Below, piece by piece: positions 1-62,872 of a stretch of DNA of 64,000 nucleotides. Numbering within the stretch: position 1 is the stretch's first letter; each line of letters opens with the position of its first letter. The position numbers and the translations under genes are program-made. Below the pieces are notes generated by a model. That model searched no databases, was not told where the DNA came from, and saw only the letters and a list, made by a program, of their open reading frames with translations. The DNA is from Elusimicrobia bacterium RIFOXYD2_FULL_34_15 (lineage in GTDB: Bacteria > Elusimicrobiota > UBA8919): positions 3,047 through 67,046 of the forward strand of contig MGVS01000118.1 of NCBI GenBank assembly GCA_001800605.1. Reading direction: 5' to 3'.

Positions 1-3000
1 GCCTTTCATCGGATTGATGACGGTTTCTTTAGGATGTATCTCAGCATCTACTCCCACACCTACAACCGAAATTGTACTTATGGTTACATTACTGTTGAAT
101 GTTTTAAATGTACTTTCGGCTTGTGATTTTTGACCTGCGGTATCAGTAAGCACCGCTTTTATTTTATGTGAGCCATTTGTATATTTAGTAGTATCTAAAT
201 CCCAGCTCTGCCAACAATAAACTTCTCCTTCACCGGTTAGATGTAAATAATCGCCTACTCCGCCGATTTTATGTAAAATTCCGTCGACTCTATTCATGGT
301 TTTTTTCAACGAACCGTCTATATAAATTTGTAACTTACTGATTCCCTTATCATCTTCTACATAACAAACAATCCGTTTTATTCCGCTTACATTGGTTTCT
401 CCGTTATATGGAGACGATATATTTATTTTCGGTGGATTGTCAACTGTAGGAATTGAAATTGTCGTTCCGCTTGCAACATTGGATAAACCGGAAGTGTTAG
501 ATGCTTCATCCAATACTTTCATTGCAAAATAATACTGTGTATTGGCTGATAATCCGTTTATTGTCATTGTCTCTGCACTACCGGCTGTTCTCGGTGTTGG
601 TTCACCTGTTACCTGTGTTGCACTTGCAAAGTTTGCTTCGGTTATTTGTGTGATAGCGTATCTTATATCATAACTTGATGCTATTCCGGTATTACCATCA
701 TCACCTACCGAAGTCCAGCTAAGCTTCATTGAAGTTGCTGTTGCATTGCTGGTTGCAAGATTATTCACTGTTGCCGGTGCTGTAACATCTGATGCTGGTG
801 GAACGTATAATGTCTTAGTAACTACTACATTTGATACATTTGACCAATTTGGTACTTCATCCGCTACTTTCATTGCAAAATAATATGTAGAACTTGCTGA
901 CAGTCCATTTATTATTATACTCTGTGCGCTGCCGGATACTTGCGGTGCCGGTTCACCTGTTACCTGCGTTGCAGATGCAAAATTGCTTCCGGTTATTGGT
1001 GTATTCGCATATCTAATGTCGTATATAGTTGCAGTTCCTGTTATACCATCATCATCACCTGTTGCTGTCCAGTTAAGTGTTATTGAATTGACATTTATAT
1101 TACTCACTGCAAGATCATTCACCGCAGAAGGCGGTGTTGTGTCAGCCGAAGGTGTCGAAGGAAGTGTCGTTGCACTTGGACTATTGGAAACATTACTCCA
1201 ATTAACTACTTCATCTCCAACTTTTATAGCAAAGTAATAAAGTGTGTTTGCATTAAGTCCGTTAACAGTAAGTGCTTCTGCTCCACCTGCTGCTTTAGGT
1301 GCCGGTTCGTCGGTTACTTGTGTTGCGCTTGTAAAATTGCTGCTCGTTATCGGCGTTCCTGCCATGTACCTTACATCGTAACTTGTTGCTGTTCCGGTTG
1401 CACCATCATCACCTGTTGCTGTCCAGCTAAGTGTTATTGAATTAACAGTCGAATTACCCGCCGCAAGCGTGTTTATTGTTGCTGGTGCTATGGTGTCAGG
1501 TGCCGGTGGTGTTACATTGTTTACGGTTACCGATATTTGTGAATTTGTGGTTTGTGCTATTGTGTCAGTTGCTACTGCCTTTATTGTGTGTGCTCCGTTT
1601 ATATAGCCCGTTGTGTCTAAGCTATATGTATATGGAGATGTTGTATCTGTGTTCTTTAACACATCATCTACATAAAACACTACTGAACTAACACCGTTAT
1701 CATCGCTCGCAGTTGCCGTTATTGTTACACTGGCAGATACTGTTGCATTGTTTGCTGGTGCTGATATCGCAACTGTCGGTGGATTGTCAACAGATGGTAA
1801 TGCACTGGTTCTACCACTTGCTACATTTGAAAGTGAACTTGTGTTAGGTACTTCATCTGCAACTTTTATGGCAATGTAATACACCGTATCCGAAGTAAGT
1901 CCGTTTATTGTCATACTCTGTGCGCTGCCTGCTGCACTTGGTGACAGTTCGCCGGTTATCTGTGTTGCTGATGCCCAGTTGCTGCTTGTTATCGGCGTTC
2001 CCGCCATGTATCTTATATCATAACTTGTTGCGGTACCTGTTGTGCCATCATCCCCAACCGATGTCCAAGTCAATGTAATTGATGATGCAGTTATGTTGAA
2101 GGTTGAAAGATTACTTACTGTTGCAGGTGCCGTTGTATCAGCTGAAGGCGGTGCCGGTAATGTAGTTGCACTTGGACTATTGGAAACATTACTCCAATTT
2201 ACTACTTCGTCTCCTATTTTCATCGCAAAATAATAAAGTGTATTTGAATTAAGTCCATTAACTATAAGTGTTTCTGAACCACCACTTGCAATAGGTATTG
2301 GCTCGCCTATTACTTGTGTTGCACTCGCAAAGTTACCGCTAGTTATCGGTGTACCTGCTATATACCTTACATCATAAATTACTGCAGTACCAGTTGTTCC
2401 ATCATCACCAACTGCTGTCCAATTAAGTGTTATTGAGTTAACAGTCGGATTATTCATTACTAATGTGTTTACTTGAGCTGGTGGTGTTGTATCAATTGCT
2501 GGCGGCACCGTAGGTAATGTTTTACTACTTGCAACATTAGATAAAGTTGACCAATTTGGAACTTCATCCGCTACTTTCATTGCAAAATAATATGTCGTGT
2601 CTGCCGTTAGATTGCTTACTGTCAGTGTTTGTTGTGTGCCTGCTATTTGTGGCGTTGGTACTCCTGTTACAGGTGTTGCACTCGCAAAGTTACCGCTAGT
2701 TATAGATGTACCTGCTAGGTACCGTATGTCATAACTTGTCGCTGTGCCCGTTGTGCCGTCATCACCTACTGCTGTCCATGTTAACGTTATCGATGTTTGT
2801 GTTGGATTACTAGCTGCAAAAGTGTTTATTTGTGCCGGCGCAGTGGTGTCGGCTACAGCCGGTATATAGTGACTTAATACTTCAGCATCCGTTAATGCGC
2901 GGTTGTATATTTTTACTTCGTCTATTATTCCGCTAAATCTACCGGCACCCGATGGCTGTCTACCTATATTTAATGTTGTTGTGTTGGTGTCTATACTTCC

Positions 3001-6000
3001 CGTTGTTGCGGTTTGGTTTACTAATACTCCATCTTGATATAACTTTAGCGTTGCGCCGTCATATGTTCCTACAAGATGATGCCATACATTGACGTCTGCT
3101 GATGTCCATGTCTTTTCTACCGAGCTTGCTATTCCGCCTTTGAATATTTTAAAGTATGCCTTGTCACTCGCTCCTATTAAATATGCTCCTTTGTCTAGTA
3201 CTCTGCGTGTTGAACCATCTTGACTTATGTCTCCGCATTTTACCCATGCTTCTACACTTATTCCGGTTGTTAAATCTAAAATGTTACTGTCGGCTACGCT
3301 TACATATGTATTCAATCCGTCGAATTGTAACGATTTTCCTATTTTCCCATCTACCCAGGCAGGACTGCCGGTTAATGTTCCGGTATTACTATTCCCGGAA
3401 CTGTCGCTTGCACTGCTTCCGGTGCCTTCATCAAAATGCCATTCTGCCACTGTGCCGGCTTGTGATAATGTCCTGCCGCTGGCTATATTACTTATCGGAC
3501 TCCAATTCGGTATTTCATCGCCTGCTTTTATTGCAAAGTAATATTGCGTGTTTTCTGTTAATCCATTTATTACCATTGTTTCTGCGCCACCGTTTACTTT
3601 TGGCGCCGGTTCACCGGTTACAGGTGTTGCACTACCCCAGTTCGCATCGGTTATTTGCGTGTTGGAATATCTGATATCATAACTGGTCGCCGTGCCTGTT
3701 GTGCCATCATCTCCGACTGCGGTCCAACTTAATGTTATTGCTGTCTGCGTTGCACTGCCGGCACTAAGTGTGATTTGCGCAGGAGCTATTGCATCTGCAG
3801 GCGGTGCCGGTGTTGTGCCGCTTACTACATTGGATATTCCACTTTGATTAGCACCTTCATCAACTGCCTTTATTGCAAAATAATATTGCGTGTTACCATT
3901 TAAATTACTCACTGTCATCGTTTCACTGCCGCCGTTTGCTTTAGGTATCGGTGCTCCGCTTACAGCTATCGCACTTGCAAAGTTGCTGCTCGTTATCGGC
4001 GTTCCTGCCATGTACCTTACATCGTAACTTGTTGCTGTTCCCGTTGTTCCGTCGTCGCCGACTGCACTCCAATTTAATACTACACTGTTATATGTTATTG
4101 TTCCAGTTGCTAAGTCGTTTATTGCTGTCGGTGGAGTCGTATCTGAAGCACCAACAGTTATTTTTATTGTGTAGTCATTTAATCCGCTTACCGCTATTTT
4201 TACTATTACATCACCGGGCGTGGTCGTTGACCTTAACGTTGCTGTTGCTAAACCGTTACTGATACTCACTGTTGTCGCAGTTGTAAATTGTCCGCTGCCA
4301 CCTCCGCTGGTTATGCTAAATACCGCACTGCCGCTGTAATTTGTTTTCCTGCCCATCCTGTCTCTTATCTCTGCCGTGATTACACTTGTGCTGGTTCCAT
4401 TCGGCGGTAAACTTGCTACACTCGCACTGCCTTTTAGTTCTACACCGTTAAAAATACTTCCTAAATTTAATACCGCATTGCTTGCTGCCGAATTGTTTGT
4501 TGAATAACTTCCTTCAAATTTATCTATATTATTATATGTTTCTGTTATTGTATGATTAAGATTGGCACTCTTATTGTATAAACTGTATGCTTGTTTAGAG
4601 TTGGTTATCATGCTTGATACCTGGTCTACTAATATGTTTGTTGAATATCGTGGTGTTACTACTGTTACCGGTCTGGGTGCTATTGCCGCTATCACTTCAT
4701 TGAAGTCAAACGGCAGTCGGTTTTTGTTTGCATCATTCTGATATAAATCGTCATTTACAAAAAATCCCAACTTAGGTATTAAACCATGTAAGTGTGATAA
4801 TGCTCTAACCCCTTCTACTCCTAATGTAGCTGTACGAAGCGGTGTTACTCCGGCTAATGGTACAACTCCTGCAATCCTGTCATCATATAATGCCGACAAC
4901 AATGCTATTGCTCCGCCAGATACTCCATAACCACAGGTATATATCTGCTGTTTATTTATCGCTCCGCTTCTCGGATTTTGTGCTGAATCTAATAATGCTG
5001 TTATTATATATTGTACATCTTCTATGTTTTTGCCCATCGCTGTCCAATTTGGAAATCTCGAATAAAAATTCTGACCTTCTTCTATTCGTATTCCGGTCCA
5101 CATTACGTCATATCCTAGTACCGCTACCTTTTTGTTTATTACCATTTCTTCTAAGTATGGCCACATGAGTTCTCTGGTTGTACCGTTTGGAGAAAATCCA
5201 TTTGTATGTGAAGTGTTATTTATGAATATCACTGTTGAATATGTACTTCTGTCTGTCGGATAACATAGATAAGCATTAAGTATTTTACTTCCTGATGAGT
5301 TCTTTACAAGTATATTTTGCCGCCCTAAGGTCCCATATGCTATCGGTTTATAATTTTCCGAAGTACTTGTAATTCCATCGTGTGCACCGCCAAAATTGGT
5401 ATTGGAAGATGTAAAGCTACTATTAGCTGGACCGGTTCCTAATAACGCTGATATCTGCTGCTTTAATAATGTTTTCTTTTGTTCCCATTCTGATGTTGTC
5501 GTTATTGTTGCATTACTGCTGTTCTTTAATAAGTCGCTCATATCTGCCGGATGTGTTGCATAGTTTGCAGGATTAATTGTGTCATTCGGATGTGCTGCTT
5601 TCCAGCTATCAAATGTATAATTGAATCTAAATAAGTTTACGTATATGTCTGTAGGTAATGTTGTTGTTCTACCCCATGCCCAATTTAAAAATTGACAATA
5701 TGCATAAATCGCTGTAGAATCTATGTGATGTCCGCCCCAGTCCATTCTTACTCCTATTTTATTTGGTATCCCTAATAAATCAAACACTTTTTTTGCTGAC
5801 CGATATGATTGTTGTATACCCCATGGTCCTCCTAAAATATCATTTACTGCGGTTCCTAATATTACTGCTCTCGGTGCACAGATCGCAGCTAATGTGTTCT
5901 CATCTACCGGTAGTTTGTTCTCTCTGCCATGGAAATCAAAAAAACCTGTCGAATTCCCATCTATTAATCCACCAACATAGGTGTTTGGTCCGTATACTTC

Positions 6001-6726
6001 GGTATTATATTCATTAGTACTATATCTGAAAGGATTCTCACCACCAACTCCACCCATATTCGGCGCTCCGCCAGTAATTTCTTCAAAAAATGCTGCTGAC
6101 CATAATGCTACTTTCCCTGCTCTTGAGTGACCACAGGTTGCTATGTATCTGCTGTCTACCCAGCTTTGATTCTTTAGCCATTTAGCTACAGCACCTACCA
6201 CAAATGCACGACGCATTAAACCGCCCCAGCTATACCCGGGAAATGCGCTGGCTATATTACTCATGTTATCATCACCTATACTATTTACAACAACTCCTAC
6301 ATAGCCCATACTGGTTGCAGCATACACATCGTCCATCCAATTCCATGTTCCGATAAGTACAGGATATTTATTACCGCTAGTATAACTTGGATAACTGAAA
6401 GATAGACTTATTCCTACACCACCAACACTTATTGTTGTTGAACCAGTTCCCCACCCTACTGTTCCACTCATGCTTGGTAAGGATGGAAATGTCCCTGTAA
6501 TGCATGTTTTAAGTAAACCTACTAAATAATTCCTTTGTGTATTCCACTCGGACGAACTTGTAATCCTTGTACCGTCCGATTTCATTAATGGATCAGGTAA
6601 TAATCCAATTGACGGAAGGTTCTGTACATACGATCTTGGACTCGTTGTAAATGCTTGTAAATTATTAATTGGGTTAAGAATTATACTTATGATTGTTATT
6701 AGTGTTAAAAATATTTTTCTTGGCAT
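1..6726 (-). CDS. Giant secreted multidomain protein, 3' end cut by the window edge (>2,242 aa). Order: signal peptide, CE15-like esterase domain, second alpha/beta-hydrolase domain, Big-like Ig domain, 8 FN3-like repeats interrupted by a LamG domain and an Ig-like domain, then a further Ig-like domain.
   Basis: Missing from the ORF track (no stop inside the window). My minus-strand translation from ATG 6726 (GGAGG at 6734-6738) stays open to position 1 in frame (6726 = 3 x 2242). Motifs: MPRKIFLTLITIISIILNP; LPDPLMKSDGTRITSSSEW; CGHSRAGKVALW (G-x-S-R-x-G-K, CE15-type nucleophile, nt ~6120-6145); GYGVSGG (nt ~4905-4935); LamG-like WHHLVGTYDGATLKLYQDG...IDEVKIYNRALT (nt ~2870-3500); eight W[TS]A[VT]GDDGTTGTATSYD[IV]RY...YYFA[IM]K units. 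Confidence 0.85.
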   Translation of the reverse strand, partial: MPRKIFLTLITIISIILNPINNLQAFTTSPRSYVQNLPSIGLLPDPLMKSDGTRITSSSEWNTQRNYLVGLLKTCITGTFPSLPSMSGTVGWGTGSTTISVGGVGISLSFSYPSYTSGNKYPVLIGTWNWMDDVYAATSMGYVGVVVNSIGDDNMSNIASAFPGYSWGGLMRRAFVVGAVAKWLKNQSWVDSRYIATCGHSRAGKVALWSAAFFEEITGGAPNMGGVGGENPFRYSTNEYNTEVYGPNTYVGGLIDGNSTGFFDFHGRENKLPVDENTLAAICAPRAVILGTAVNDILGGPWGIQQSYRSAKKVFDLLGIPNKIGVRMDWGGHHIDSTAIYAYCQFLNWAWGRTTTLPTDIYVNLFRFNYTFDSWKAAHPNDTINPANYATHPADMSDLLKNSSNATITTTSEWEQKKTLLKQQISALLGTGPANSSFTSSNTNFGGAHDGITSTSENYKPIAYGTLGRQNILVKNSSGSKILNAYLCYPTDRSTYSTVIFINNTSHTNGFSPNGTTRELMWPYLEEMVINKKVAVLGYDVMWTGIRIEEGQNFYSRFPNWTAMGKNIEDVQYIITALLDSAQNPRSGAINKQQIYTCGYGVSGGAIALLSALYDDRIAGVVPLAGVTPLRTATLGVEGVRALSHLHGLIPKLGFFVNDDLYQNDANKNRLPFDFNEVIAAIAPRPVTVVTPRYSTNILVDQVSSMITNSKQAYSLYNKSANLNHTITETYNNIDKFEGSYSTNNSAASNAVLNLGSIFNGVELKGSASVASLPPNGTSTSVITAEIRDRMGRKTNYSGSAVFSITSGGGSGQFTTATTVSISNGLATATLRSTTTPGDVIVKIAVSGLNDYTIKITVGASDTTPPTAINDLATGTITYNSVVLNWSAVGDDGTTGTATSYDVRYMAGTPITSSNFASAIAVSGAPIPKANGGSETMTVSNLNGNTQYYFAIKAVDEGANQSGISNVVSGTTPAPPADAIAPAQITLSAGSATQTAITLSWTAVGDDGTTGTATSYDIRYSNTQITDANWGSATPVTGEPAPKVNGGAETMVINGLTENTQYYFAIKAGDEIPNWSPISNIASGRTLSQAGTVAEWHFDEGTGSSASDSSGNSNTGTLTGSPAWVDGKIGKSLQFDGLNTYVSVADSNILDLTTGISVEAWVKCGDISQDGSTRRVLDKGAYLIGASDKAYFKIFKGGIASSVEKTWTSADVNVWHHLVGTYDGATLKLYQDGVLVNQTATTGSIDTNTTTLNIGRQPSGAGRFSGIIDEVKIYNRALTDAEVLSHYIPAVADTTAPAQINTFAASNPTQTSITLTWTAVGDDGTTGTATSYDIRYLAGTSITSGNFASATPVTGVPTPQIAGTQQTLTVSNLTADTTYYFAMKVADEVPNWSTLSNVASSKTLPTVPPAIDTTPPAQVNTLVMNNPTVNSITLNWTAVGDDGTTGTAVIYDVRYIAGTPITSGNFASATQVIGEPIPIASGGSETLIVNGLNSNTLYYFAMKIGDEVVNWSNVSNSPSATTLPAPPSADTTAPATVSNLSTFNITASSITLTWTSVGDDGTTGTATSYDIRYMAGTPITSSNWASATQITGELSPSAAGSAQSMTINGLTSDTVYYIAIKVADEVPNTSSLSNVASGRTSALPSVDNPPTVAISAPANNATVSASVTITATASDDNGVSSVVFYVDDVLKNTDTTSPYTYSLDTTGYINGAHTIKAVATDTIAQTTNSQISVTVNNVTPPAPDTIAPATINTLAAGNSTVNSITLSWTATGDDGATGTATSYDVRYMAGTPITSSNFTSATQVTDEPAPKAAGGAEALTVNGLNANTLYYFAIKVGDEVVNWSNVSNSPSATTLPSTPSADTTPPSAVNDLAVSNINVNSITLNWTATGDDDGITGTATIYDIRYANTPITGSNFASATQVTGEPAPQVSGSAQSIIINGLSASSTYYFAMKVADEVPNWSNVSNVVVTKTLYVPPASDVTAPATVNNLATSNATATSMKLSWTSVGDDGNTGIASSYDIRYAITQITEANFASATQVTGEPTPRTAGSAETMTINGLSANTQYYFAMKVLDEASNTSGLSNVASGTTISIPTVDNPPKINISSPYNGETNVSGIKRIVCYVEDDKGISKLQIYIDGSLKKTMNRVDGILHKIGGVGDYLHLTGEGEVYCWQSWDLDTTKYTNGSHKIKAVLTDTAGQKSQAESTFKTFNSNVTISTISVVGVGVDAEIHPKETVINPMKG
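520..4090 (-). repeat. Eight tandem FN3-like coding repeats, period ~351-356 nt, interrupted by a LamG module (~2870-3500) and an Ig module (~1500-1790).
   Basis: The antisense signature tt[ct]at[ta]gcaaa[ag]taata (= YYFA[IM]K) recurs near 528, 878, 1230, 1872, 2226, 2582, 3533 and 3878. The plus-strand shadow ORFs ending ...SSP[TIA]FIAK reflect the same periodicity. Confidence 0.85.
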
Positions 6727-7486: not shown

Positions 7487-7573
7487 GAAAATCAATTAAA
7501 AATTTAAAAACTTGTCTCGTTCTACGGGATTAAAAATTCAAAATTGTGGTTTTTATTATTTTATCTGTAAACT

Positions 7574-7821: not shown

Positions 7822-8015
7822 AAAATTCAATTAAAAATTAAAAATGCAAAATTGTGGTTTTTATTATTTTATCTATGCCTGCCCGCCTACGGTTTCTTGT
7901 CCAGCGTAGCTTTCTCGTTCTTCGAAGCTTTAGCGAAGGAGAAAGCGAAGTTGGAAGTGGCGGGAACTATGAACTACAAACCATGAACTTTCTGCCTCTC
8001 TACCTCTCTACCCTA

Positions 8016-8636: not shown

Positions 8637-8784
8637 AGAAAAAAACAATTAAAAATTAAAAATGTAAAATTGTGGTATTTTATTATTTTGTTTTAAAGAC
8701 TTTACCTTTTCCTCCAATGACTTAGTGGCGGGCTACCTCTTTACCCGTTACTCATTACCCATTACTCGTTACTAGTTATATCAT

Positions 8785-11954: not shown

Positions 11955-12116
11955 AGATAGGATACAGGATACAGTACACAGTATACAGCTTATGAAAGGC
12001 AGTACACAGGATAACAGCTCACAGGATTCAGCTCTATAAATTATGATAAACTGTATTCTGTATTCTGTGCTCTGAGTACTGCATTTTCACTGTATCCTGT
12101 ATCCTGAGTACTGACT
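11955..12116. repeat. ~150-nt composite long-hairpin element (GGATACAG / CTGTATCC arms), copy 1. Its internal site is empty.
   Basis: It fills the nadK-recN spacer. It is homologous to 27283-27436 (opposite orientation) and 45173-45291 (same orientation). Confidence 0.8.
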
Positions 12117-16307: not shown

Positions 16308-16421
16308 AATCAATTAAAAATGCAAAATGCAAAATTAAAAATTGTGGTATAAATTTATAAAATAAAAATTAAGTTGTAATTCCTACATTTTTAATTTTTA
16401 ATTATTAATTTTGAATTGCTT

Positions 16422-22641: not shown

Positions 22642-22738
22642 GTAGCGCCCTGCCTGCCGTCAGGCAGGCTCGCCAACGTTTTCTTGTCCGCCAAATTCGC
22701 CAGCTGGCGAATCAGTGGCGGAAGTGGCGGGCATCTTA
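22642..22738. repeat. Composite intergenic element between the two BNR paralogs.
   Basis: A 34-nt block (22642-22675, containing the hairpin cctgcctg-ccgt-caggcagg) and a 35-nt block (22724-22758) are identical to 25147-25180 and 25189-25223. About 48 nt of extra CCGCC/GGCGG modules lie between the blocks here. Confidence 0.85.
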
Positions 22739-27282: not shown

Positions 27283-27436
27283 AGTACTCAGGATACAGTA
27301 TACAGAATACAGTTATTGATAATTTATAAAACTTAATCCTGCATGTCCGCCAACGTCTCAGTGGAGGATGAGCTATTATCCTGTGCACCGCCATTCATAA
27401 GCTGTATCCTGAATCCTGTATACTGTGTGCTTGCCT
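27283..27436. repeat. ~150-nt composite long-hairpin element, copy 2, with its internal site filled by a 27-nt CCGCC/GGAGG module.
   Basis: Arms agtactcaggatacagtatacagaatacag / ctgtatcctgaatcctgtatactgtgt. The nested insert lies within 27335-27370. The element ends exactly at the stop codon of the MFS gene. Confidence 0.8.
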
Positions 27437-28670: not shown

Positions 28671-28895
28671 GATGTGGGGTATTAAGGTAACTGCACATAC
28701 AGTTTCCGGTCCCCGTAATTCCAAAAACTGTAGCTGCAGAGCCTGACTGCCGTCAGGCAGGCGATAGCTCTGCTAAAACATAGCAAAGCTTACGCTTTGC
28801 TGCTACAAAATAAAAAATAAAATATATTCATTGATAGTTGTTAAAGGTTATTTGGCTAGGAAAACAAAAAAAATAATATTATAAACTACAATATT

Positions 28896-39376: not shown

Positions 39377-39478
39377 TTTTATTCTCCAGAGAATAGCGAC
39401 AACACTTAATCAGCATCAGAACCATAGAGCAGTAGAACTTCAGAACGCCCTTTACCCAATATCCCCATACTATGCACA

Positions 39479-39528
39479 TATGACTGACTGGTCAGTCATA
39501 ATATACCATATTATAATATCCTTGTCAA
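39479..39528 (-). promoter_or_regulatory. Sigma-70 promoter with a palindromic operator for the TetR-efflux operon.
   Basis: Minus-strand read: TTGACA (39528-39523), 17-nt spacer, TATATT (39505-39500). This is directly followed by the perfect inverted repeat TATGACTGAC-CA-GTCAGTCATA (39500-39479). Confidence 0.6.
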
Positions 39529-39529
39529 T

Positions 39530-39588
39530 AGTTTTCTTACTTTATATTTTTTACAACTGCTTCGGACATCAGGTTAATCGGCGGTTTA
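39530..39588 (-). pseudogene. Duplicated copy (left part) of the 3' end of gene 40938-43085. It continues at 39802-39826 after two MITE insertions.
   Basis: 39553-39588 is identical to 40954-40989 (36/36). 39802-39826 matches 40990-41014 (24/25). Confidence 0.8.
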
Positions 39589-39708
39589 CCCCGTACGAGA
39601 TAGGAAGCATTTTCGAATGCTTCCGTAACTCTTAAATAAATCTTTATTATTTTATTACACTTAAATGTCAAATATGTATATAAGCTTACAAACCAATCTC
39701 TGACGGGG
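39589..39708. mobile_element. MITE-like element, copy a (120 nt).
   Basis: Ends CCCCGTACGAGA...TCTCTGACGGGG are imperfect 12-bp terminal inverted repeats. Internal perfect hairpin ggaagcatt-ttcg-aatgcttcc. Flanked by TTTA on both sides. Confidence 0.75.
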
Positions 39709-39712
39709 TTTA

Positions 39713-39797
39713 CCCCGTATGAAAATGAACTTACATAATACTAATTAAATACTGTTTGACTTTAAAAGGTACCTAATTACAACATTTTCTAGCGGGG
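39713..39797. mobile_element. MITE-like element, copy b (85 nt, lacks the internal hairpin), in tandem with copy a.
   Basis: Ends CCCCGTATGAAA...TTTCTAGCGGGG. Flanked by TTTA on both sides. Confidence 0.6.
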
Positions 39798-39878
39798 TTT
39801 ATGCGGAATGTTTGCTTCTTGTTCGTGAAATTATCGTTTACAATTTACAAAATCCTGCTCAATAAGATAAGTTATATT

Positions 39879-40304
39879 CTATTTTATCAGTCCTTTTGAC
39901 TTGTCAATAAATTCTTCAGCAATTTTTAATAATTTTTCGCACCCTTGTTTTGTCCATCTGCTGTAATAATCGGCTTCCTCTCTCAAAGTTTTAGCTTCCT
40001 GTAAACCTTCAAGGAGATGAAGCGGCAATTTATTTTTATTGACATATAATTCTCTTATAGCCGTAAGAAGACAAAAATGGCTATGCTCACGCAAATTCTC
40101 CTTATATAACAATGCTCTGGCGCTGTGAAACATAGCATAATATAGTTGTATTACCGCCCATTTATAGTCCCCTTCGCTATATGTTTTCCTTGCACGCTCA
40201 AAATCTAATATCGCCTCTTCCAGTTCCTTATTTGACAATTCTTTACCTCTTGAAAACGGTTTAATTTTTCCTCTTTTTAAACAATCATCATAATTTAAAC
40301 TCAT
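39879..40304 (-). CDS. HEPN-domain protein (putative toxin of a HEPN-MNT pair).
   Basis: The pattern ...YYAMFHSARALLYKENLREHSHFCLL...LREEADYYSRW is typical of PF05168-type HEPN. ATG 40304 overlaps the MNT stop (ATGA); the track start at 40319 is TTG. Confidence 0.7.
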   Translation of the reverse strand: MSLNYDDCLKRGKIKPFSRGKELSNKELEEAILDFERARKTYSEGDYKWAVIQLYYAMFHSARALLYKENLREHSHFCLLTAIRELYVNKNKLPLHLLEGLQEAKTLREEADYYSRWTKQGCEKLLKIAEEFIDKSKGLIK

Positions 40305-40849
40305 TCTTTTTGCTCCCAAATAATTATGCCTCTGTCAACTTCGCTATAAAATACTTTCTCGCTTTCTTTCATTTCATAAAACTGAATAGGAGTTTTAATA
40401 ATCGCCTGTATTTTTCTTTCAATTTTTAACATACTTATTTGCTTTTTTACTTCTTCCGGATTCCTAGTAATAATAAGCAAATCAAAATCGCTACCCCATG
40501 TGTCTTCGCCCCTGCCTGCACTTCCGTACAATATTATTTTCACTGCTATTAGTTTTAATTTAGTAATTATTTTTTTCAAAGCTAACATATTTCTTAATAC
40601 TTTAAACTGTTTTACTATAAAATTATTGTAATCGAGCTTATATAAGAAGAATTTACCACGTTGCTCTCTATTTATCATACCTTGTTTTTCTAATTCTTGC
40701 AAAGCAATATATACGCCTACTTTACTAAGAGTAGTAGCTTTTTGTATTTCACTGCTCAAGAGTTCTTTACCAGGATTCTCCACAAGAAAAGACAATACCT
40801 TTAGTATACTTGTGGACTGAAATATATCTGAATAATTACTTCGCTTCAT
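40301..40849 (-). CDS. Winged-helix plus minimal nucleotidyltransferase (MNT) protein (putative antitoxin).
   Basis: ILYGSAGRGEDTWGSDFDLLII fits GSxxRGxxxxxSDxDLL. The N-terminal ~70 aa resemble an ArsR/MarR-like wHTH. Confidence 0.8.
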   Translation of the reverse strand: MKRSNYSDIFQSTSILKVLSFLVENPGKELLSSEIQKATTLSKVGVYIALQELEKQGMINREQRGKFFLYKLDYNNFIVKQFKVLRNMLALKKIITKLKLIAVKIILYGSAGRGEDTWGSDFDLLIITRNPEEVKKQISMLKIERKIQAIIKTPIQFYEMKESEKVFYSEVDRGIIIWEQKE

Positions 40850-40937: not shown

Positions 40938-43085
40938 TTACTTAATATTTTTGACAACTGCTTCGGACATCAGGTTAATCGGCGGTTTATGCGGAATGTT
41001 TGCTTCCTGTTCGGATAGTATTTCATATACAGCTACACGGTTTACAAAATTACCATTTTGTGCTTCATCTTTATAAAATATTTCCTTTACGTATTTTTTC
41101 CAAAAATCATTATATACAGAAAGGGATTGATCATCCCACTGAAACATTTTGTAGCTTTTTCCCAGGCGAATCGCCTCTCCGACGTTAAAGAAAATATGTG
41201 TTATCCCCTGTTCTTTCATTTTGTTATACAGCTCATCCCCGCTTTTAGATAACTTCGCATATTCTACTATCGGGGTTAAATCGTGAGCCGAGGAAACAAC
41301 CGGAATCCTTTCAACATAAAAACTTCTGCCCTCACCAACAAACAAAACCTTTGCATCCTTAGGTAAATTTTTATTTATAAATTCCATTCCGGCATAATAA
41401 CCATACGGATAAGATGAGTGTGTGGTACTTAAAAAATTGGATTTTGTATCCTTACCGAAAACAACTCTCCACCCGCCTTGAATATAAGATATCCAGCCGG
41501 ACCAATATATACCGGTAACACAAGTAATCAAAATTACCCATGCTAAAACTTTTTTTACTGATTTATAGTTACCGGTATTATTATAATTAGAAATAATCAG
41601 CCCAATAACAGGGAATGCCGGCATCATAAATCTAATCATTGTAGTTGAAAATGACCAAGTCAGCCATACAATAATACTATAAACAATCCCGTAACCTAAA
41701 ATAAGCGGAGGTTTTCCAAAAAGAAACAATAACGGTATTAAAAATAGAAAAAGCGGCGTAAAATTTTCCGAATTAGAAATTTTACCCATAGTTATATCCC
41801 AAGGATGTTTAAGCCAATTTCCCAGTTCAAATTTACTTGATTGTCTTGCCTCTGCAATAAAACCATTAAGTTTTGTATAGTCCGAGTACGGATCTTTCGG
41901 GAAAATATTACTTAAATAAGGATAGACAGGATTTTTTTTGTAAACGTAATTTTTAATTAGCCACGGGCTGACTATTAGCGATGAAATAAATATAAAAATT
42001 ACTACTTTTTTTATAATTTCCAGCGAGAATTTCCTATTAACAGTTAAATAAGCAAAAATTACGCCGATTGCTGCAAAAATACCCGTATATTTAACGCCCA
42101 TGGTTAATCCCGCAAATATGCTTGATATAATTAACCAATTTTTCTGTTCTAAATTATAATTCATAATAGCATATAACGAAAGAATTGAAAAATACACTAA
42201 AATAGTTTCTGTTCCGCATGACCAGGAACTAAGCATTACATGTGTAATTGCATAAAATATTAAAGATGCCCATATCCCGATTTTTAAATTAAAATATCTT
42301 TTCGAAATAGATAACAATGTTATACAACAAAACAATGCCGCTGAATAATTTATTAATTTTGATATAATTTCATCTTTTATCAGAAGCCCTGTAGTAAAAA
42401 GCATGCTCGCTACCGCAGGAAGGTTTGAGAGGAAAACATAAGGCATGTTGACTACCTTGTGGTTTAATTTATAGTAATTCGGAACCGCTAAATGATAAAC
42501 AAGTGAATCATAAAATATTTCCGGGCTTAAAGCGCCTGCTAAATTTAATAGCAATGCAAATACTAAAATAATTAAAGCACATATATCTGCAAAAGGCAAT
42601 TTTTCTTTTTCAAATATTGCTTTCATCGGTTTTTTCTTTAAATCTACAAAACCGATAATTGCAACTAAAAATATCATTATTCGTATTAATGAACTATAAA
42701 GCAACCCAAGTATACCTATAAAAAAAACTAAATATGCTATAATCCCGAACCCAAAACCAACCGAAAATACTAATTCTTCCAAAGAATTGAAAAAATTTAT
42801 CTTAAATATTCTAAAAAATAATCTTCCAAAACTGAATGCAGAAAATAAAAATATCAAAGCAAGTAAAATATTGAATAAATGTTTAAATAATAACAGATTT
42901 CCCAAATTTAATATGCCTAGATATTGGTCAATGGACAACATCATCCCTAGATTGTCAGAATTTATTTTAAAAGTACCGTAATAATTTTTTAATACAATTA
43001 ATCCCCATACACCGGTTATAATCCATACAATCCATCCCGGAATAATCTTTTTCTGTTCAACTTTCTTTATTTTGTTTTTTTGCAT
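40938..43085 (-). CDS. Polytopic membrane protein, GT-C-like (ArnT/PMT-type) putative glycosyltransferase with a C-terminal soluble domain.
   Basis: 715 aa with more than 12 predicted TM helices, a first-loop motif EIFYDSLVYHLAVPNYY, and a ~170-aa C-terminal non-membrane domain. The family call comes from architecture and context only. Confidence 0.5.
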   Translation of the reverse strand: MQKNKIKKVEQKKIIPGWIVWIITGVWGLIVLKNYYGTFKINSDNLGMMLSIDQYLGILNLGNLLLFKHLFNILLALIFLFSAFSFGRLFFRIFKINFFNSLEELVFSVGFGFGIIAYLVFFIGILGLLYSSLIRIMIFLVAIIGFVDLKKKPMKAIFEKEKLPFADICALIILVFALLLNLAGALSPEIFYDSLVYHLAVPNYYKLNHKVVNMPYVFLSNLPAVASMLFTTGLLIKDEIISKLINYSAALFCCITLLSISKRYFNLKIGIWASLIFYAITHVMLSSWSCGTETILVYFSILSLYAIMNYNLEQKNWLIISSIFAGLTMGVKYTGIFAAIGVIFAYLTVNRKFSLEIIKKVVIFIFISSLIVSPWLIKNYVYKKNPVYPYLSNIFPKDPYSDYTKLNGFIAEARQSSKFELGNWLKHPWDITMGKISNSENFTPLFLFLIPLLFLFGKPPLILGYGIVYSIIVWLTWSFSTTMIRFMMPAFPVIGLIISNYNNTGNYKSVKKVLAWVILITCVTGIYWSGWISYIQGGWRVVFGKDTKSNFLSTTHSSYPYGYYAGMEFINKNLPKDAKVLFVGEGRSFYVERIPVVSSAHDLTPIVEYAKLSKSGDELYNKMKEQGITHIFFNVGEAIRLGKSYKMFQWDDQSLSVYNDFWKKYVKEIFYKDEAQNGNFVNRVAVYEILSEQEANIPHKPPINLMSEAVVKNIK

Positions 43086-45172: not shown

Positions 45173-45291
45173 GTACTCAGTATAGAGAATATCCTCCACT
45201 GAAACGTCGGCGGACAAGCAGGATTCAGCTGTATTTTTAAATATAAATTATTTAAAACTGTATTCTGTGTACTGTATCCTGTTTACTGCCT
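45173..45291. repeat. ~150-nt composite long-hairpin element, copy 3, with its internal site filled.
   Basis: Contains atcctccactgaaacgtcggcggacaagcaggatt (45191-45225), the reverse complement of the insert in copy 2. The element ends at the stop codon of the GT2 gene. Confidence 0.8.
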
Positions 45292-45975: not shown

Positions 45976-46093
45976 TTAAAATAGACCTCTTTATAGCATT
46001 TTTAGCTGTATACTGCCTGCCCGCCTACAGTTTCTTGTCCGCCAAAGTTTCAGTGGCGGAAGTGGCGGGTATTCTGTATCCTGTGTACTGACT

Positions 46094-47233: not shown

Positions 47234-47242
47234 TAATTTTTA

Positions 47243-47361
47243 TCCCGTTAGAGATAGGAAGCATTTCTTAATGCTTCCGTGTATTGCTAATAATATATTT
47301 TCGTATATTTTATCATTCTTTTAAATAACATGTATGGTAAATAAAATTATCTCTAATGGGA
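47243..47361. mobile_element. MITE-like element, copy c (119 nt). It fills the whole stomatin-hemW spacer.
   Basis: Ends TCCCGTTAGAGA...TCTCTAATGGGA. Hairpin ggaagcatt-tctt-aatgcttcc. Preceded by TTTA. Confidence 0.75.
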
Positions 47362-49859: not shown

Positions 49860-51182
49860 TCAAATTATCCAGCCATTTCTTATTTTTTCTTCCTGAATTA
49901 CTTTTTTAGCATTTGAAATTACTTCGGAAGGAATATCGGGAGGTTGTAACTTACAAATATTATTAATTGCAATTATCGCCGTTTTTTTAACTTCGACGTC
50001 CTTATCATTTAGTAGACTTAATAATATCTTAAATGTGTCAACTGTTAAAATATTTTCAATTACTTTAACACAATCATATCTTAGCCGTGATTGGTCACTT
50101 TTTGAAAGATTTAATATATTTTCCAATGCAGCCGTTTTATTTATATTCATGATGGTTTTTATGGAAATTATCATTTTCTGTATAATTTGCCTGGAATATT
50201 CTTCTTTTTTCACAGCATTTGCTATATCATCCAATATTATGTTTTCTTGAATGGTTTCTTCGAATTTTTGCTGGGCATTTTTGCTGTCACTTTCAGTAAC
50301 TAATTTTTTTTCTAAAGTTTGAATTTTCAAAATTGATTCTACTTCTCCTTTTTGTCTTTCTTCGTCAATTATTTTTATTTTAGCCGATTGCCTTAATTTA
50401 TTTCTTTCTTCAATCTGCAGATTATTTTTCATTTTTTCCATTTTTTTTAAATTTTTAACAGTCCTATAATAAAACACTATAAACAAACCGGCAATTATAA
50501 CCACAAATATAATCAAAATAATAAAATACATTTTATAATTGTCTTCTACTTTTTCATTTTTGACCGATTCAATAAAATTCTCTGCTATTTTTGGTTTTTC
50601 TACAATATCCTCCTTATTGGTAGGATTAATTTTTTTCCCCATGGGTACCGAATTAACATTTTTTTTAACAGATTCTCTTTTTTGAGTTGTTTCTTGTACT
50701 GTTCTATTTTCATTAATAACCGGTTCTTTTTTAGTCGGTCCTCCTGATATAACTTTCAATAACTCGTTTACTTTTGTATCTTCCGGAGATACTACTTTTG
50801 CTTTTTCAATATAAATTTTTGCTTTATGGTAATTACTCACTAAAACCTGTTTTTCAGCAGCTTCGATCAAAACCCTCACTAAAAAATTTTCTACTTTTTG
50901 ATTTTGCGGATTTTGCGACAATATTTTCTCAAACAATTCTATAGCACCTTCATAATCACCTTTTACATATTTATCTATAGCAGAATTAAAATAAATATCC
51001 GGATTTGTTTGTGAATAAAGATAAGTATCGGGTAACGAGTAACGAGTAACGGGAAATAGGTAACAAATAGAAAGAATTAACAGAAAAAGTTTTAATCTGT
51101 GCCCGCCACTGAATCTTTGGCGGGTAAATAATCTTTTTCTAAAATCTGTGCAAACTTGTCCTGAGCATAGTCGAAGGATCAT
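49860..51182 (-). CDS. TPR / single-TM / HEAT-repeat protein. The N-terminal ~55 codons are encoded by repeat modules, so the start is uncertain.
   Basis: TPR: DKYVKGDYEGAIELFEKILSQNPQN. TM: YFIILIIFVVIIAGLFIVFYY. C-terminal HEAT-like LLNDKDVEVKKTAIIAINNI. The only in-frame ATG upstream of the TPR is 51182 (ATGA overlap with the upstream gene). Confidence 0.55.
   Translation of the reverse strand: MILRLCSGQVCTDFRKRLFTRQRFSGGHRLKLFLLILSICYLFPVTRYSLPDTYLYSQTNPDIYFNSAIDKYVKGDYEGAIELFEKILSQNPQNQKVENFLVRVLIEAAEKQVLVSNYHKAKIYIEKAKVVSPEDTKVNELLKVISGGPTKKEPVINENRTVQETTQKRESVKKNVNSVPMGKKINPTNKEDIVEKPKIAENFIESVKNEKVEDNYKMYFIILIIFVVIIAGLFIVFYYRTVKNLKKMEKMKNNLQIEERNKLRQSAKIKIIDEERQKGEVESILKIQTLEKKLVTESDSKNAQQKFEETIQENIILDDIANAVKKEEYSRQIIQKMIISIKTIMNINKTAALENILNLSKSDQSRLRYDCVKVIENILTVDTFKILLSLLNDKDVEVKKTAIIAINNICKLQPPDIPSEVISNAKKVIQEEKIRNGWII
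51010..51182. repeat. Mosaic of four vocabulary modules lying inside the 5' end of ORF 49860-51182.
   Basis: Modules: cttgtcctgagcatagtcgaaggat; aatctgtgcaaac; cccgccactgaatctttggcgggt; gtaacgagtaacgagtaacggg. Each also occurs in non-coding spacers elsewhere in the window. Confidence 0.75.
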
Positions 51183-52732: not shown

Positions 52733-52762
52733 TTTAATACAGTTGAAAAATATTTTTTACTG

Positions 52763-52882
52763 GTCATTGCGAGCGATCCGCCAACTGGCGGTGAGCCTGC
52801 CTACCGGACAGGCAGGCGTGGCAATCTCTTTTACCGACGAGATTGCTTCGTCGGTCGCCGCGGCGACCTTCCTCGCAATGAC
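52763..52882. repeat. GTCATTGCGAG...CTCGCAATGAC hairpin element with two nested modules.
   Basis: The nested modules are ccgccaactggcgg and gcctgcctaccggacaggcaggc. The spurious ORF 52743-52937 translates this element. Confidence 0.8.
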
Positions 52883-52990
52883 ACCATTGGTCTCAAAATA
52901 CCATTCAAAAAGTGTCTTTAGAAGTAACAACAAATAAAATATTAGTAAAACCTCAATTTTTAACTTTTAATTTTGAATTTTTAATTGTTT

Positions 52991-60090: not shown

Positions 60091-60105
60091 ATTAATTCCC
60101 CTTTA

Positions 60106-60228
60106 CCCCGTACGAGATAGGAAGCATTTCCTAATGCTTCCGTGGTAATTTTAATATTTTTGTACAACTGATTATATTCTTTATTCATTAACATGTATGT
60201 ATAGCATACTAACTAATCTCTAATGGGG
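60106..60228. mobile_element. MITE-like element, copy d (123 nt). Its right end supplies the last two codons and the stop of gene 60220-60600.
   Basis: Ends CCCCGTACGAGA...TCTCTAATGGGG. Hairpin ggaagcatt-tcct-aatgcttcc. Preceded by TTTA. Confidence 0.75.
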
Positions 60229-60600
60229 GTTCTCTAATGCTTTATTTATTATATCCAGTATTTCATTTACGTCCATTGGTTTATATATACAAGTATAGGC
60301 ACCAAGTTCCTTTGCTTTTGATTCAAATAAATGATTTGGATCCGAACTGCTGCTAAAAATTATCACAACATGTGTAGGTTTCATTTCTTTAATAATTTTT
60401 AATACTTCGGGACCCTGCATCTTGGGCATATGGACATCAAGAAAAATAATATCAAACTCACTCTTTTTTACCATCTCAATACCTTCCAACCCATCACATG
60501 CGGCAAAAACCTGATAACCCAATGGCTCTAACAAAAACTTAAATAAGTCCCTTATTCCTTGCTCATCATCAATCACTAGTATTTTTGCTTTAGTTTTCAT
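60220..60600 (-). CDS. Stand-alone CheY-like response regulator.
   Basis: MKTKAKILVIDDEQGIR...IFLDVHMPKMQG. Its first 50 nt are 48/50 identical to the start of gene 58534-60090. Confidence 0.9.
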   Translation of the reverse strand: MKTKAKILVIDDEQGIRDLFKFLLEPLGYQVFAACDGLEGIEMVKKSEFDIIFLDVHMPKMQGPEVLKIIKEMKPTHVVIIFSSSSDPNHLFESKAKELGAYTCIYKPMDVNEILDIINKALENPH

Positions 60601-62872
60601 AGTTATCTACTCCCACCGGCAATTTTATTATAAACGTCGTACCTTTTCCGATTTCCTTGCCCTCCGTAGCTTTATTGTCCGCCAACGGTGTAGTGGCGGA
60701 AGCGAAGGCGGGACTTTCCACTTCTATTGTGCCATTGTGTTTCTGTATTATCTCATAACTTAAACTTAACCCTAATCCCGTTCCTTTACCCACTTCCTTT
60801 GTTGTAAAATATGGTTCAAATATTTTGCTTTTTATTTCATTAGGAATACCTTCCCCGGTATCTGATATCCTAATTATTATATAATTTATATACCTATTGT
60901 CTATTTCAATATTACTACTTATCTTTATCTCTCCGCCTTTAGGCATAGCATCCATTGCATTGTTACATAGATTTACTATAACTTGTTGTATTTGATTACT
61001 GTTTACCATAATCATAGGTAATCCCTCACTATACTTTTTGATAATTTCTACTTTTTTTAATTTTGCTTGTGCCTCAATCAATGATATTGTTCCATCTATT
61101 ACAATATTTATATTTACTAGTTCCACCTTAGATTTCTCCTTTCTTGAAAATACTAATAAATCATTTATTAAATTTTTACACCTTACTGCCTCTCGTTCTA
61201 TTGATTTTAACGGCATATATAACAAATCCCCTTCCTTTATATTCTTAACTACACTTTGAGCAAAACCTAATATTACCCCCATTGGATTATTTATTTCATG
61301 TGCCACCCCGCCTGCTAACTGTCCTACTGCTGCCATCTTTTCGATCTGTAAAAATTGAGCTTGTAGCTTCTCTTTTTCTTGTTCCATATATTTACGATTA
61401 ATAATACTCGCTAAAACATTTGCTATAGAATTAAGAAATCTTTCTGCCTCTACATTACGAGAACTTCCGGCTTTTATATATATATTTATTACACCTAAAA
61501 CCTTATCCATAAAGGTTATTGGAACACAGTAATGACCATGTTTGACCATATTTTCATATCTGGTAGTATGCCTTTCGTCAAGACAATCAGTAAATTGTAT
61601 TTCTTTTTTTAATGCTGCCAAACCGCAAAGACATTTACCGAAATTAATCTTTGAACATGCTAAACAAATAGGTTCTCCTACATTTTTCTGAGCTTTCATC
61701 ACTAAAATTGATGGTTCTTCTGTAATAAATATTGCTCCTTTTGATTCAAAAGAAAGCCATGGAATATCAAGAATACTATCCAATGTTTTCTCAAGGATTT
61801 TATTTAGTGAAACATTTTCTACCTGAAGCTTTAAAAGTGTGTTTAAAACATATTGAATATCATAATTTTGTTGTATTTCTTGCTCTGCATGTTTAATTTC
61901 AGACATATCTTTTGCCATTAAAACAATATTACCATTATTACCCTTGATAACCGATATACTTAACATCATCGGAATTATATCTCCGATTTTAGAAAAATAA
62001 TTAATTTCAAAATTATTAATAAACCTATTTATATTCAGTTCTTTTATTTTTTCTTTCCCCAAAAGAGAACTTGCAAATAGTAAAAAATCGCTTTTTTCTT
62101 CTTTTTGAGTTACTCTAAAAACTATTTCTATATGTTTCCCTATAATCTCATCTTCTCTATATCCTAATAAATTTAAAGTTGCTTTGTTTACTTTCTCTAT
62201 TATTCCTTCCGGATTTACTATAATTAAACTGTCTATCATACTATTAATTATGTTATCTGAAAATTCTTTCGCTACAGTGATTTGGTTTTTGGCAATCAAT
62301 AGTTCTTTGTTTTGAGATTCTATTCTCTTATAAACCTGGTCAACTTCTAATTCTATCGCTGATTTTAAAGTAATATCCTGAATGAATAAAGTAGCACCCA
62401 ATATCTTATTTTGATTATCTTTTAACGATCCGGCAATTACATTTAATCTAACTTTAGATTCTTCTAATTCTACTTCTTTAACGGTTACTTCCTGTTCTTG
62501 GTTAAGAACTGAGTCTACTATTTCTTTTAATCCCATTTCATCTAAAACCTGATATATTTTATTATCATCGGACAAATCTTTCCCTTTTAATAATAAAAAT
62601 TTCTTGGCAGATGTATTTAACGAAATAATCTTTCCATTACTATCAAAAGATATTTTACCGCCACCTATTGTTTCTAATGTTTCATCGTTCCTTATAAACT
62701 TTTTCAATTTCGGAAGAACTTCTTCATTTATTATTATTCTCATCTGACTTGGTGTTACTTCATAAGGATTTGCGCCAAGTTTTTCTAACCCCATATCGAC
62801 GATTGCTTTGGCAAACATCGGCGTAATCAAAGCAATTTTGGATACTACGCTATCGTATAAGTCTTTTCCCAT
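60590..62872 (-). CDS. Sensor histidine kinase (PAS, Cys-rich GAF-like domain, HisKA, HATPase) with a repeat-derived insertion in the ATPase domain.
   Basis: H-box AHEINNPMGVI; DTGEGI; GTGLGLSLS. The C-terminus reads IEVES[PAFASATTPLADNKATEGK]EIGKGTTFIIKLPV. Confidence 0.9.
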   Translation of the reverse strand: MGKDLYDSVVSKIALITPMFAKAIVDMGLEKLGANPYEVTPSQMRIIINEEVLPKLKKFIRNDETLETIGGGKISFDSNGKIISLNTSAKKFLLLKGKDLSDDNKIYQVLDEMGLKEIVDSVLNQEQEVTVKEVELEESKVRLNVIAGSLKDNQNKILGATLFIQDITLKSAIELEVDQVYKRIESQNKELLIAKNQITVAKEFSDNIINSMIDSLIIVNPEGIIEKVNKATLNLLGYREDEIIGKHIEIVFRVTQKEEKSDFLLFASSLLGKEKIKELNINRFINNFEINYFSKIGDIIPMMLSISVIKGNNGNIVLMAKDMSEIKHAEQEIQQNYDIQYVLNTLLKLQVENVSLNKILEKTLDSILDIPWLSFESKGAIFITEEPSILVMKAQKNVGEPICLACSKINFGKCLCGLAALKKEIQFTDCLDERHTTRYENMVKHGHYCVPITFMDKVLGVINIYIKAGSSRNVEAERFLNSIANVLASIINRKYMEQEKEKLQAQFLQIEKMAAVGQLAGGVAHEINNPMGVILGFAQSVVKNIKEGDLLYMPLKSIEREAVRCKNLINDLLVFSRKEKSKVELVNINIVIDGTISLIEAQAKLKKVEIIKKYSEGLPMIMVNSNQIQQVIVNLCNNAMDAMPKGGEIKISSNIEIDNRYINYIIIRISDTGEGIPNEIKSKIFEPYFTTKEVGKGTGLGLSLSYEIIQKHNGTIEVESPAFASATTPLADNKATEGKEIGKGTTFIIKLPVGVDNYEN
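60661..60715. repeat. GC-rich CCGCC/GGCGG palindromic module inserted in frame in the kinase gene.
   Basis: ttgtccgccaacggtgtagtggcggaagcgaaggcggg aligns with the intergenic ttgtccgccaaagtttcagtggcggaagtggcggg (46036-46070) and with 22684-22729. Confidence 0.8.

Follow-up and report, generated by a model that had tools for sequence, protein, structure and literature searches.

How a GC-rich palindrome of the kind found between genes comes to be read as part of a catalytic domain is the question raised by a sensor histidine kinase gene (60590-62872, minus strand) of Elusimicrobia bacterium RIFOXYD2_FULL_34_15, an AT-rich member of the Elusimicrobiota whose lineage is unrelated to Rickettsia. 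The gene lies in a 64-kb stretch of DNA, here called the window, whose RecN shares 66-71% identity with proteins labelled Elusimicrobia or Elusimicrobiota, in agreement with this phylum. Its open reading frame (ORF) encodes 760 residues with PAS, GAF, HisKA and HATPase_c domains in Pfam, and the translated C-terminus reads ...HNGTIEVES-PAFASATTPLADNKATEGK-EIGKGTTFIIKLPVGVDNYEN. A first-pass annotation of the DNA had counted about 19 extra codons after IEVES, placed them at 60661-60715 and ascribed them to an in-frame insertion of a palindromic repeat. We consider it likely that a small non-coding GC-rich stem-loop repeat did become a coding part of a turn in the HATPase_c domain of this working kinase.

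The insertion in the HATPase_c domain

The closest homolog of the kinase (P0002) is 80% identical over 100% of its length, and its gene lies on a contig (L003) that has in common with the window the order V4R-domain protein, kinase, response regulator (RR) and RR-GAF kinase, at 82-93% DNA identity across 5.5 kb. This ortholog reads ..IEVES-EVGKGTTF.., and its DNA alignment with the window is interrupted once, by exactly 57 nt that fall between GAAAG(T/C) and GA(A/G), with a boundary ambiguity of 1-3 nt. The alignment places the insert at 60656-60712 on the minus strand (residues P721-K739, PAFASATTPLADNKATEGK), which confirms the earlier codon count at exactly 19 and shows the earlier coordinates to have been essentially right. 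Because its length is divisible by three and its frame is free of stops, the gene stays open, as had been stated, and the protein is predicted to gain a 19-residue loop within the stretch ...IEVESPAFASATTPLADNK.... The high GC content of the segment noted earlier is also real, with 61% GC in the insert versus 32% in the kinase gene and surrounding region.

Of the 60 best protein hits, all those with the kinase domain at their C-terminus have an unexpanded turn here; the many hybrid kinases of the set terminate in a receiver domain, so the site is not seen in them. A fixed turn of 3-4 residues occupies this position in ~90 homologs, and among metagenome relatives whose C-terminus could be read the insert is seen only in contig L108, identical to a paralog (L057) discussed below. 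Two other kinases of the window have the same ..ESE.. site, empty, at the matching place (..IWVESEGLAKGSKF.. and ..ISVQSEGEGKGAEF..). The first-pass annotation had called for insert-free alleles among orthologous kinases and had reasoned that a homologous segment in distant orthologs would point to an ancestral loop. Such alleles were found in L003 and in the ~90 homologs, which lack the segment, the one paralog excepted, and from these alignments we take the segment to be an insertion relative to the ortholog and not an ancestral loop. The 760-residue insert-bearing protein is recorded in identical form on six contigs, and since the two shown come from different assemblies the insert is not an assembly accident.

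The host protein matches HisKA (E = 7e-12) and HATPase_c (E = 4e-25) in Pfam, and the HATPase_c match spans 129 residues against 107 profile positions, a surplus of ~20 residues that fits an insertion. Residues N134, D167-G169-G171 and G195-G197 are invariant in the kinase alignment, and the N, G1, F and G2 motifs that define a HisKA-type kinase are all present. Comparison with the L003 ortholog gives a non-synonymous divergence (dN) of 0.094 and a synonymous divergence (dS) of 0.46, or dN/dS of ~0.2, and the host gene is under purifying selection.

Residues 505-760 were modeled with AlphaFold2 using 35 homologs, giving a mean predicted local distance difference test score (pLDDT) of 84 and a predicted template modeling score (pTM) of 0.68. 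The model matches the dimerization, histidine phosphotransfer and catalytic (DHp-CA) structures of ZraS, CckA and HK853 with E = 1e-20 to 1e-14. Between the strands formed by model residues 211-215 (TIEVE) and 242-249 (TTFIIKLP) everything is predicted as coil with pLDDT 54-59, and the insert corresponds to model residues 217-235. In ZraS, β6 and β7 bound the nucleotide pocket, the N, G1, F, G2 and G3 boxes line it, and the segment from the F box to the G2 box holds the ATP lid (PMC12314577). Its position between the last two strands therefore assigns the insert to the β6-β7 turn, three residues before the GKGT motif, and not to the lid. An earlier expectation of a surface loop near the ATP lid thus agrees with the model in that the insert forms coil between the last two HATPase_c strands, and departs from it in naming the lid. 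The model shows the kinase fold kept, with the insert as low-confidence coil, and the encoded 19-residue surface loop, which is rich in Pro, Ala, Ser and Thr, is probably disordered.

The palindromic repeat family

The insert is a two-level nested palindrome, and the element to which it is compared has an outer stem CCCGCC...GGCGGG, a spacer TACAGTTTCTT, an inner hairpin GTCCGCC-AAAGTTTCAGT-GGCGGA and then AGT. In the kinase copy the GTCCGCC...GGCGGA hairpin is positioned within the loop of an outer CCCTCC...GGCGGG module whose stem is slightly degenerate. The 24-base inner core (GTCCGCCAACGGTGTAGTGGCGGA, 60677-60700, plus strand), with a 7-bp stem, matches exactly the pattern derived from an intergenic copy, agreeing with 46037-46060 at 18 of 18 specified positions. 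That copy is part of a full-length nested element between genes (46018-46070, plus strand; family D6) with an outer CCCGCC/GGCGGG stem and an inner GTCCGCC/GGCGGA hairpin, and it is the best match to the insert, with 76% ungapped identity over 45 nt (46018-46062) and an identical hairpin stem. The resemblance to 46036-46070 reported in the first-pass annotation is therefore real, and its second match, at 22684-22729, proves to be the same element with a third hairpin (TTCGCCAGCTGGCGAA) in the inner loop (22667-22733, plus strand, intergenic). The third, at 7894-7956, stands for the outer arms of another intergenic copy (7880-7965, plus strand) whose inner module is different. This nested architecture, seen at all three sites, recurs in L028 and L044, and in nested copies the inner module always enters the host loop at the same point, ...TTTC TT[inner]AGT....

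The pattern GTCCGCCAA-N6-AGTGGCGGA, with up to three mismatches allowed, has six hits in the window versus 0.02 expected. When the insert is compared with the window by pairwise BLAST, the best pair is weak (E = 0.2) and for that reason was not taken as proof. By Smith-Waterman scoring against all intergenic DNA the insert falls in the top 0.8% of 8194 coding 57-mers, and its score is reached by 1 of 290 GC-rich 57-mers, several of the top scorers being other repeats. Scored against background, as the earlier annotation had advised, the similarity is modest by pairwise statistics alone. What carries the case for membership is the match to the exact pattern together with evidence from outside the window, which is decisive: the empty site of the ortholog and the copies of the hairpin in other genomes. 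A scan for perfect GC-rich 6-bp stems placed the family-type hairpins between genes save for the kinase copy and one at 51102, with ~10 in ~5 kb of intergenic DNA versus 2 in ~58 kb of ORF sequence. A search of the complete window with Rfam, using gathering thresholds, matched no family. On the strength of these comparisons, the insert is a copy of a GC-rich palindromic repeat that is otherwise intergenic in the window.

A one-genome-per-species scan for the exact hairpin pattern, with six loop positions left free, returned at least 103 stretches. Among the matches listed, ~43 are labelled Elusimicrobia or Elusimicrobiota, ~25 Omnitrophota (including Candidatus Velamenicoccus archaeovorus) and 21 are unlabelled bacteria, the rest being scattered. 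The second free loop position is G in 99 of 106 copies, and G also in the kinase copy (loop CGGTGT); such agreement at an unconstrained position argues for related sequences and not chance hairpins. The kinase copy conforms as well to the loop consensus AA[AC]G-n-T-[TG][TC]-AGT. External copies adjoin tRNA and housekeeping genes, often beside an inverted partner. Taken together, the matches indicate that the hairpin family is spread through Elusimicrobiota and Omnitrophota genomes. Phage were considered as a vector and rejected, the pattern occurring in just one contig of a viral contig collection.

Several external copies lie in real ORFs in the orientation and frame of the kinase copy and read S-A-T-x-x-L-A-D. 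Unrelated proteins are involved: in an apolipoprotein N-acyltransferase (Lnt) of UBA9627 the hairpin separates the LNT_N domain from CN_hydrolase, in a beta-lactamase-fold protein it falls within the domain, in a C11 peptidase it follows the signal peptide, and in an endonuclease I it is part of the signal peptide.

In relatives, palindromic modules also occupy a second loop of HATPase_c. The loop joining the N-box strand to the G1 box (LCNNAMDAM to DTGxG) has 37 residues in the shortest relatives and is longer in several AT-rich loci. In L003 and L057 it has 52 residues and contains, in frame, a full copy of a ~62-nt three-stem element (TTGTAGCnGCAGAGC...GCTCTGC...GCAAAG...CTTTGC..GCTACAA) with intergenic copies at 28727-28812 of the window and 5238-5300 of L107. 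In L109 a loop of 54 residues includes the perfect palindrome CCTGCCTGCCGGCAGGCAGG, read as APACRQAG, which is the module found between genes at 22649 and 25154 of the window. The loop reaches 78 residues in L115 (1260-1493), with three TCCCCCTTTTTCAAAGGGGGA hairpins in frame, and 69 residues in L116 (3427-3633), where nested GC-rich palindromes are read in frame; one of these, CCACCGTAGCTTTAGCGAAGGCGG, corresponds to the outer module of the window insert in its un-nested form. Both are kinases of other AT-rich uncultured bacteria. The window kinase has no module at this loop. A 20-nt CTGACTGCCGTCAGGCAGGC module is nested in the first loop of the three-stem copy at 28727-28812 and is missing from the copy in L107.

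Single hairpins are found in the window between genes at 27345-27368 (plus strand), inside a ~150-nt repeat, and at 45192-45215 (minus strand), and in a degenerate form at 8709-8732 (plus strand; pattern hit). A repeat of ~120-150 nt with GTATCCTGTATCCTG-type ends, which resembles a miniature inverted-repeat transposable element (MITE), is present at 27283-27431 and, inverted, at 45191-45287 and 11964-12080, and has a CCGCC hairpin at its center at two of the three sites. The single hairpin at 51102-51125 (minus strand) is in the 5′ end of ORF 49860-51182, where it reads ..TRQRFSGGH... At 51032-51182 the modules CCTTCGACTATGCTCAGGACAAG, a CCCGCC hairpin and GTAACGAGTAACGAGTAACGGG lie within the sole available 5′ extension of this tetratricopeptide repeat (TPR) protein ORF, whose ATG overlaps the upstream stop codon. 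The three modules precede a signal-peptide-like hydrophobic stretch and may be translated; the coding status of the 51102 copy in this N-terminal extension is uncertain. Between a response-regulator gene and a TPR gene, at 52757-52896, is a 140-nt composite GC-rich element with an outer stem GTCATTGCGAG...CTCGCAATGAC around four separate hairpins and a predicted fold of -70 kcal/mol.

Larger arrangements are seen in other genomes as well. In three loci of Elusimicrobia bin N2.88 (L052, L059, L106) the hairpin is arrayed in tandem, head to tail, every 25 nt, and CCATTACTACATCGGTG-type units flank the arrays. In eight Omnitrophota loci (L006, L011, L025, L032, L038, L070, L083, L105) the hairpin stands in the context gtgcgctgtt...aacagcgcacRga[hairpin]cggtcaaNtttc..tcgatt, which is repeated on several contigs of one genome and is a distinct composite repeat or a structured RNA.

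Origin of the insert and alternative explanations

The same insert is present in a UBA9627 kinase (L057, identical to metagenome contig L108), which reads ..IEVES-PTFTSATTPLADKKVTDGK-EVGKGTTF... This kinase, 890 residues long, spans the membrane with its N-terminus, differs in its PAS blocks and is not followed by a response regulator. It was considered as an ortholog of the window kinase and rejected on its N-terminal domains and gene context, which make it a paralog; its own ortholog, L109, is without the insert. The window and L057 inserts differ at 5 of 57 positions versus 53 of 198 in the flanks (Fisher p = 0.004). None of these five changes is in the 24-nt core, and all are non-synonymous, with 0 synonymous. 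The insert is kept in two lineages whose flanks differ by ~27%, and both copies share the unusual loop CGGTGT and spacer AG[CT]GAA. The DHp-CA modules are mosaic, L003 and L057 having in common a ~130-nt tract at 98-100% identity with flanks at ~60-90%. We read these patterns as pointing to a single origin of the insert, after which gene conversion carried it from one paralog to another, and homogenization of, or constraint on, the hairpin may also be at work.

The conversion of a non-coding repeat into a coding turn, the explanation that we favor, would involve the following steps. The repeat would multiply as a non-autonomous element resembling a MITE or a repetitive extragenic palindrome (REP), or by recombination between copies. 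Copies surviving in genes would be those with a length divisible by three and a stop-free frame that came to lie in tolerant loops, and the encoded peptide would be a tolerated passenger rather than an adaptation. The host gene itself may have gained the insert by gene conversion from a paralogous kinase already carrying it.

Several observations weigh against this explanation. A target-site duplication was sought at the filled site and none was convincing, AAG being the most that could be matched. No transposase is among the 42 ORFs of the window as searched with Pfam, and the window has no insertion sequence (IS); all-against-all clustering of 1666 ORFs from 103 hairpin loci likewise returned no transposase and no hairpin-linked recurrent neighbor, so that mobility is inferred solely from the distribution of copies and from presence and absence. 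The families that do recur near external hairpins are housekeeping ones (LptB-like ATPase, PilT, RodA, RNase PH). Nor is there the consistent GTAG or CGTC end tag of a REP, GTAG being found in 28 of 106 external copies and there inside the loop next to the 3′ arm. Since the insert is both present and absent in each paralog lineage, a single simple insertion does not describe its history. Divergence from the L003 ortholog is also far greater in the C-terminal third of the gene than toward the N-terminus, dS being 1.03 for the last 270 codons and 0.28 for the first 500. Finally, a comparison of the window with L057 shows less divergence in the insert than in its flanks, a difference for which the status of a neutral passenger is by itself insufficient.

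Among the alternatives, an ancestral loop lost by relatives, a chance match to repeats or an assembly artefact would be consistent with the BLAST value of 0.2 and with the 0.8% of coding 57-mers that score as well against intergenic DNA. We regard all three as extremely improbable given the fixed 3-4 residue turn of ~90 homologs, an exact 18-position pattern common to intergenic copies here and to more than 100 elsewhere, the 61% GC of the insert in a 32% GC gene, and the identical protein on six contigs from at least the two different assemblies shown. It is also unlikely, in our judgment, that the hairpin is kept for a function as nucleic acid, whether by stabilizing the mRNA, by marking a site of processing or by adjusting translational coupling to the response regulator that begins 56 nt downstream, with the peptide as a by-product. 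The regulator gene (60220-60600, minus strand) overlaps the kinase stop codon, and the insert is positioned 56-112 nt upstream of the regulator start. A role of this kind would account for the 24-nt core being identical between the window and L057 while 5 of the remaining 33 insert positions and ~27% of the flanks have changed, for the lack of synonymous changes, for a loop sequence conserved across phyla, and for the stable predicted fold of the nested hairpin (-23.3 kcal/mol). The fold has a z-score of just -1.55 versus dinucleotide shuffles, however, so its significance as RNA structure is weak, and 0 of 24 versus 5 of 33 is not significant alone. L057 has no downstream response regulator to couple to, and insert-free orthologs evidently manage without the hairpin.

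The remaining alternatives concern how the insert reached its site. That the element first entered another kinase of the paralog family and came to the host gene by gene conversion or recombination between the closely similar DHp-CA modules is quite possible, although we stop short of preferring it; it is a refinement of the favored explanation and not a contradiction of it. Such a route is suggested by the presence of the insert in kinase A (window) and kinase B (L057) and its absence from A (L003) and B (L109), by the nearly identical L003/L057 tract, by the jump in ortholog dS toward the C-terminus, and by the loop and spacer details common to both copies. Against it, divergence climbs to ~20-27% directly at either edge of the insert, which would require a conversion tract to coincide almost exactly with the insert, and no donor paralog from the window's own genome is available. 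A target-specific element could instead have inserted independently at the same codon of the two paralogs by a single-strand, duplication-free process like that of HUH/Y1 elements (IS200/RAYT-type, the latter being REP-associated tyrosine transposases), with precise excision possible. The mixed presence and absence in both lineages, the missing target-site duplication, the low divergence of the insert relative to its flanks and the constant nesting point would all follow, but searches of the window ORFs and of the neighbors of external hairpins turned up no transposase, of Y1 type or otherwise, the two other window kinases share the ..ESE.. site and are empty, and the idiosyncrasies of the two copies favor a single origin; we think independent insertion improbable. 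Duplication-free insertion and the fixed point ...TTTC-TT[inner]AGT would be compatible with a single-strand HUH/Y1 mechanism, though this is speculation.

A wider proposal, which we hold to be doubtful, is that the hairpin (stem TCCGCC/GGCGGA, loop AA[AC]G-n-T-[TG][TC]-AGT) might be the unit of an undescribed self-nesting system in Elusimicrobiota, Omnitrophota and neighboring lineages. Such a system would be site-directed, duplication-free and precisely reversible, and would recolonize the same two HATPase loops and other proteins in one preferred frame. If so, it would be a standing source of loop variation in signaling proteins and no occasional accident.

Relation to known repeats and other features of the window

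Rickettsia palindromic elements (RPEs) are palindromic repeats of ~150 bp found in frame in protein genes of Rickettsia (PMC10969869). The insert hairpin resembles them in that a palindromic repeat is present both between genes and in frame in unrelated genes with the frame unbroken, in that one reading frame is used across different host proteins, and in the predicted placement of the insertion in a fold-compatible loop. It is set apart by size and host, being a 57-nt element of two modules of roughly 27-30 nt in the Elusimicrobiota, where RPE-1 to RPE-10 measure about 100-150 bp, and by a hairpin core common to at least two phyla. The first-pass annotation had called this the same phenomenon as RPEs in an unrelated AT-rich genome. 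The in-frame palindrome and the Elusimicrobiota host support that comparison; the phenomenon itself is not peculiar to Rickettsia, since intragenic GTAG- and CGTC-tagged REPs encode 20-30 residues in bacteria that include Opitutus terrae, Thauera and Xanthomonas (Di Nocera et al. 2013, PMC3733652), a study that makes no mention of Elusimicrobia.

REPs are stem-loops of 20-40 bp with many copies, mostly between co-directional genes, and the hairpin unit of 24-25 nt, predominantly extragenic, is like them. As with intragenic REPs, some copies lie wholly inside ORFs and copies at N-terminal ends are of doubtful coding status, as at 51102. Unlike REPs, the modules nest in one another's loops. No RAYT was seen among the window ORFs or as a recurrent neighbor in the 103 external loci. 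Classification as a GTAG-REP was rejected, the tag being in just those 28 copies and not outside the palindrome. MITEs too are known to form in-frame fusions, as in intragenic ERIC, BOX and Anabaena MITEs (PMC10969869). With these the element has in common a small non-autonomous repeat, complementary ends (outer arms CCCTCC/GGCGGG) and a sequence readable as part of a host ORF; it is much shorter than is typical and has no related autonomous IS in the window, and without a target-site duplication it does not fit a MITE. Families of REPINs, hairpins of paired REPs, are reported to be lineage-specific and tied to a single-copy RAYT (bioRxiv 10.1101/2022.05.22.493013). The hairpins described here are likewise often in adjacent inverted pairs, chromosomal and almost absent from viral contigs, but the same hairpin occurs across phyla and no RAYT was found in the window or near external loci.

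In the literature searched we found no description of palindromic repeats of this kind in Elusimicrobia, and the repeat family, modular, self-nesting, conserved in its loop across phyla and with no transposase seen with it, seems to be undescribed. In-frame palindrome insertion is already known from Rickettsia and other bacteria, and the Elusimicrobiota case is a new example. It suggests that the in-frame colonization for which Rickettsia is famous also takes place in free-living, AT-rich, uncultured Elusimicrobiota, and inside a very well-known catalytic fold. The natural allele pair with and without the insert offers a test of how far the Bergerat fold tolerates a 19-residue loop beside the nucleotide pocket. 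For annotation, a GC-rich spike within an AT-rich gene of these lineages can reflect a genuine coding insertion, and peptides that stem from the repeat, such as SATTxLAD, are to be expected again in unrelated proteins.

The window contains further repeats of other kinds. Its first part (1-6700) is GC-richer (39-43% GC) and contains at least six copies of a 354-nt (118-codon) tandem repeat at 62-81% identity; it probably encodes a portion of some very large, repetitive surface protein whose gene extends past the window. An AT-rich motif of ~40 nt (AATTAAAAATTAAAAATGCAAAATTGTGGT...) is present between genes, near gene starts, at 7529, 7837, 8655, 16305 and 31933 and, inverted, at 16387, 38722, 52950 and 57333, and may be a promoter or regulatory motif. 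A 42-nt repeat (TTTACCCCGTACGAGATAGGAAGCATTTnnnAATGCTTCCGT; 86-95% identity) that contains a hairpin lies just downstream of genes at 39585-39626, 47239-47280 and 60102-60143, including between the response regulator and the next kinase, and is terminator-like. The 3′ end of ORF 40938-43085 (40938-40989) is duplicated at 39537-39588 (52 nt, 96% identity), in a 500-nt non-coding stretch (39377-39878) beside a HEPN/nucleotidyltransferase gene pair (39879-40849).

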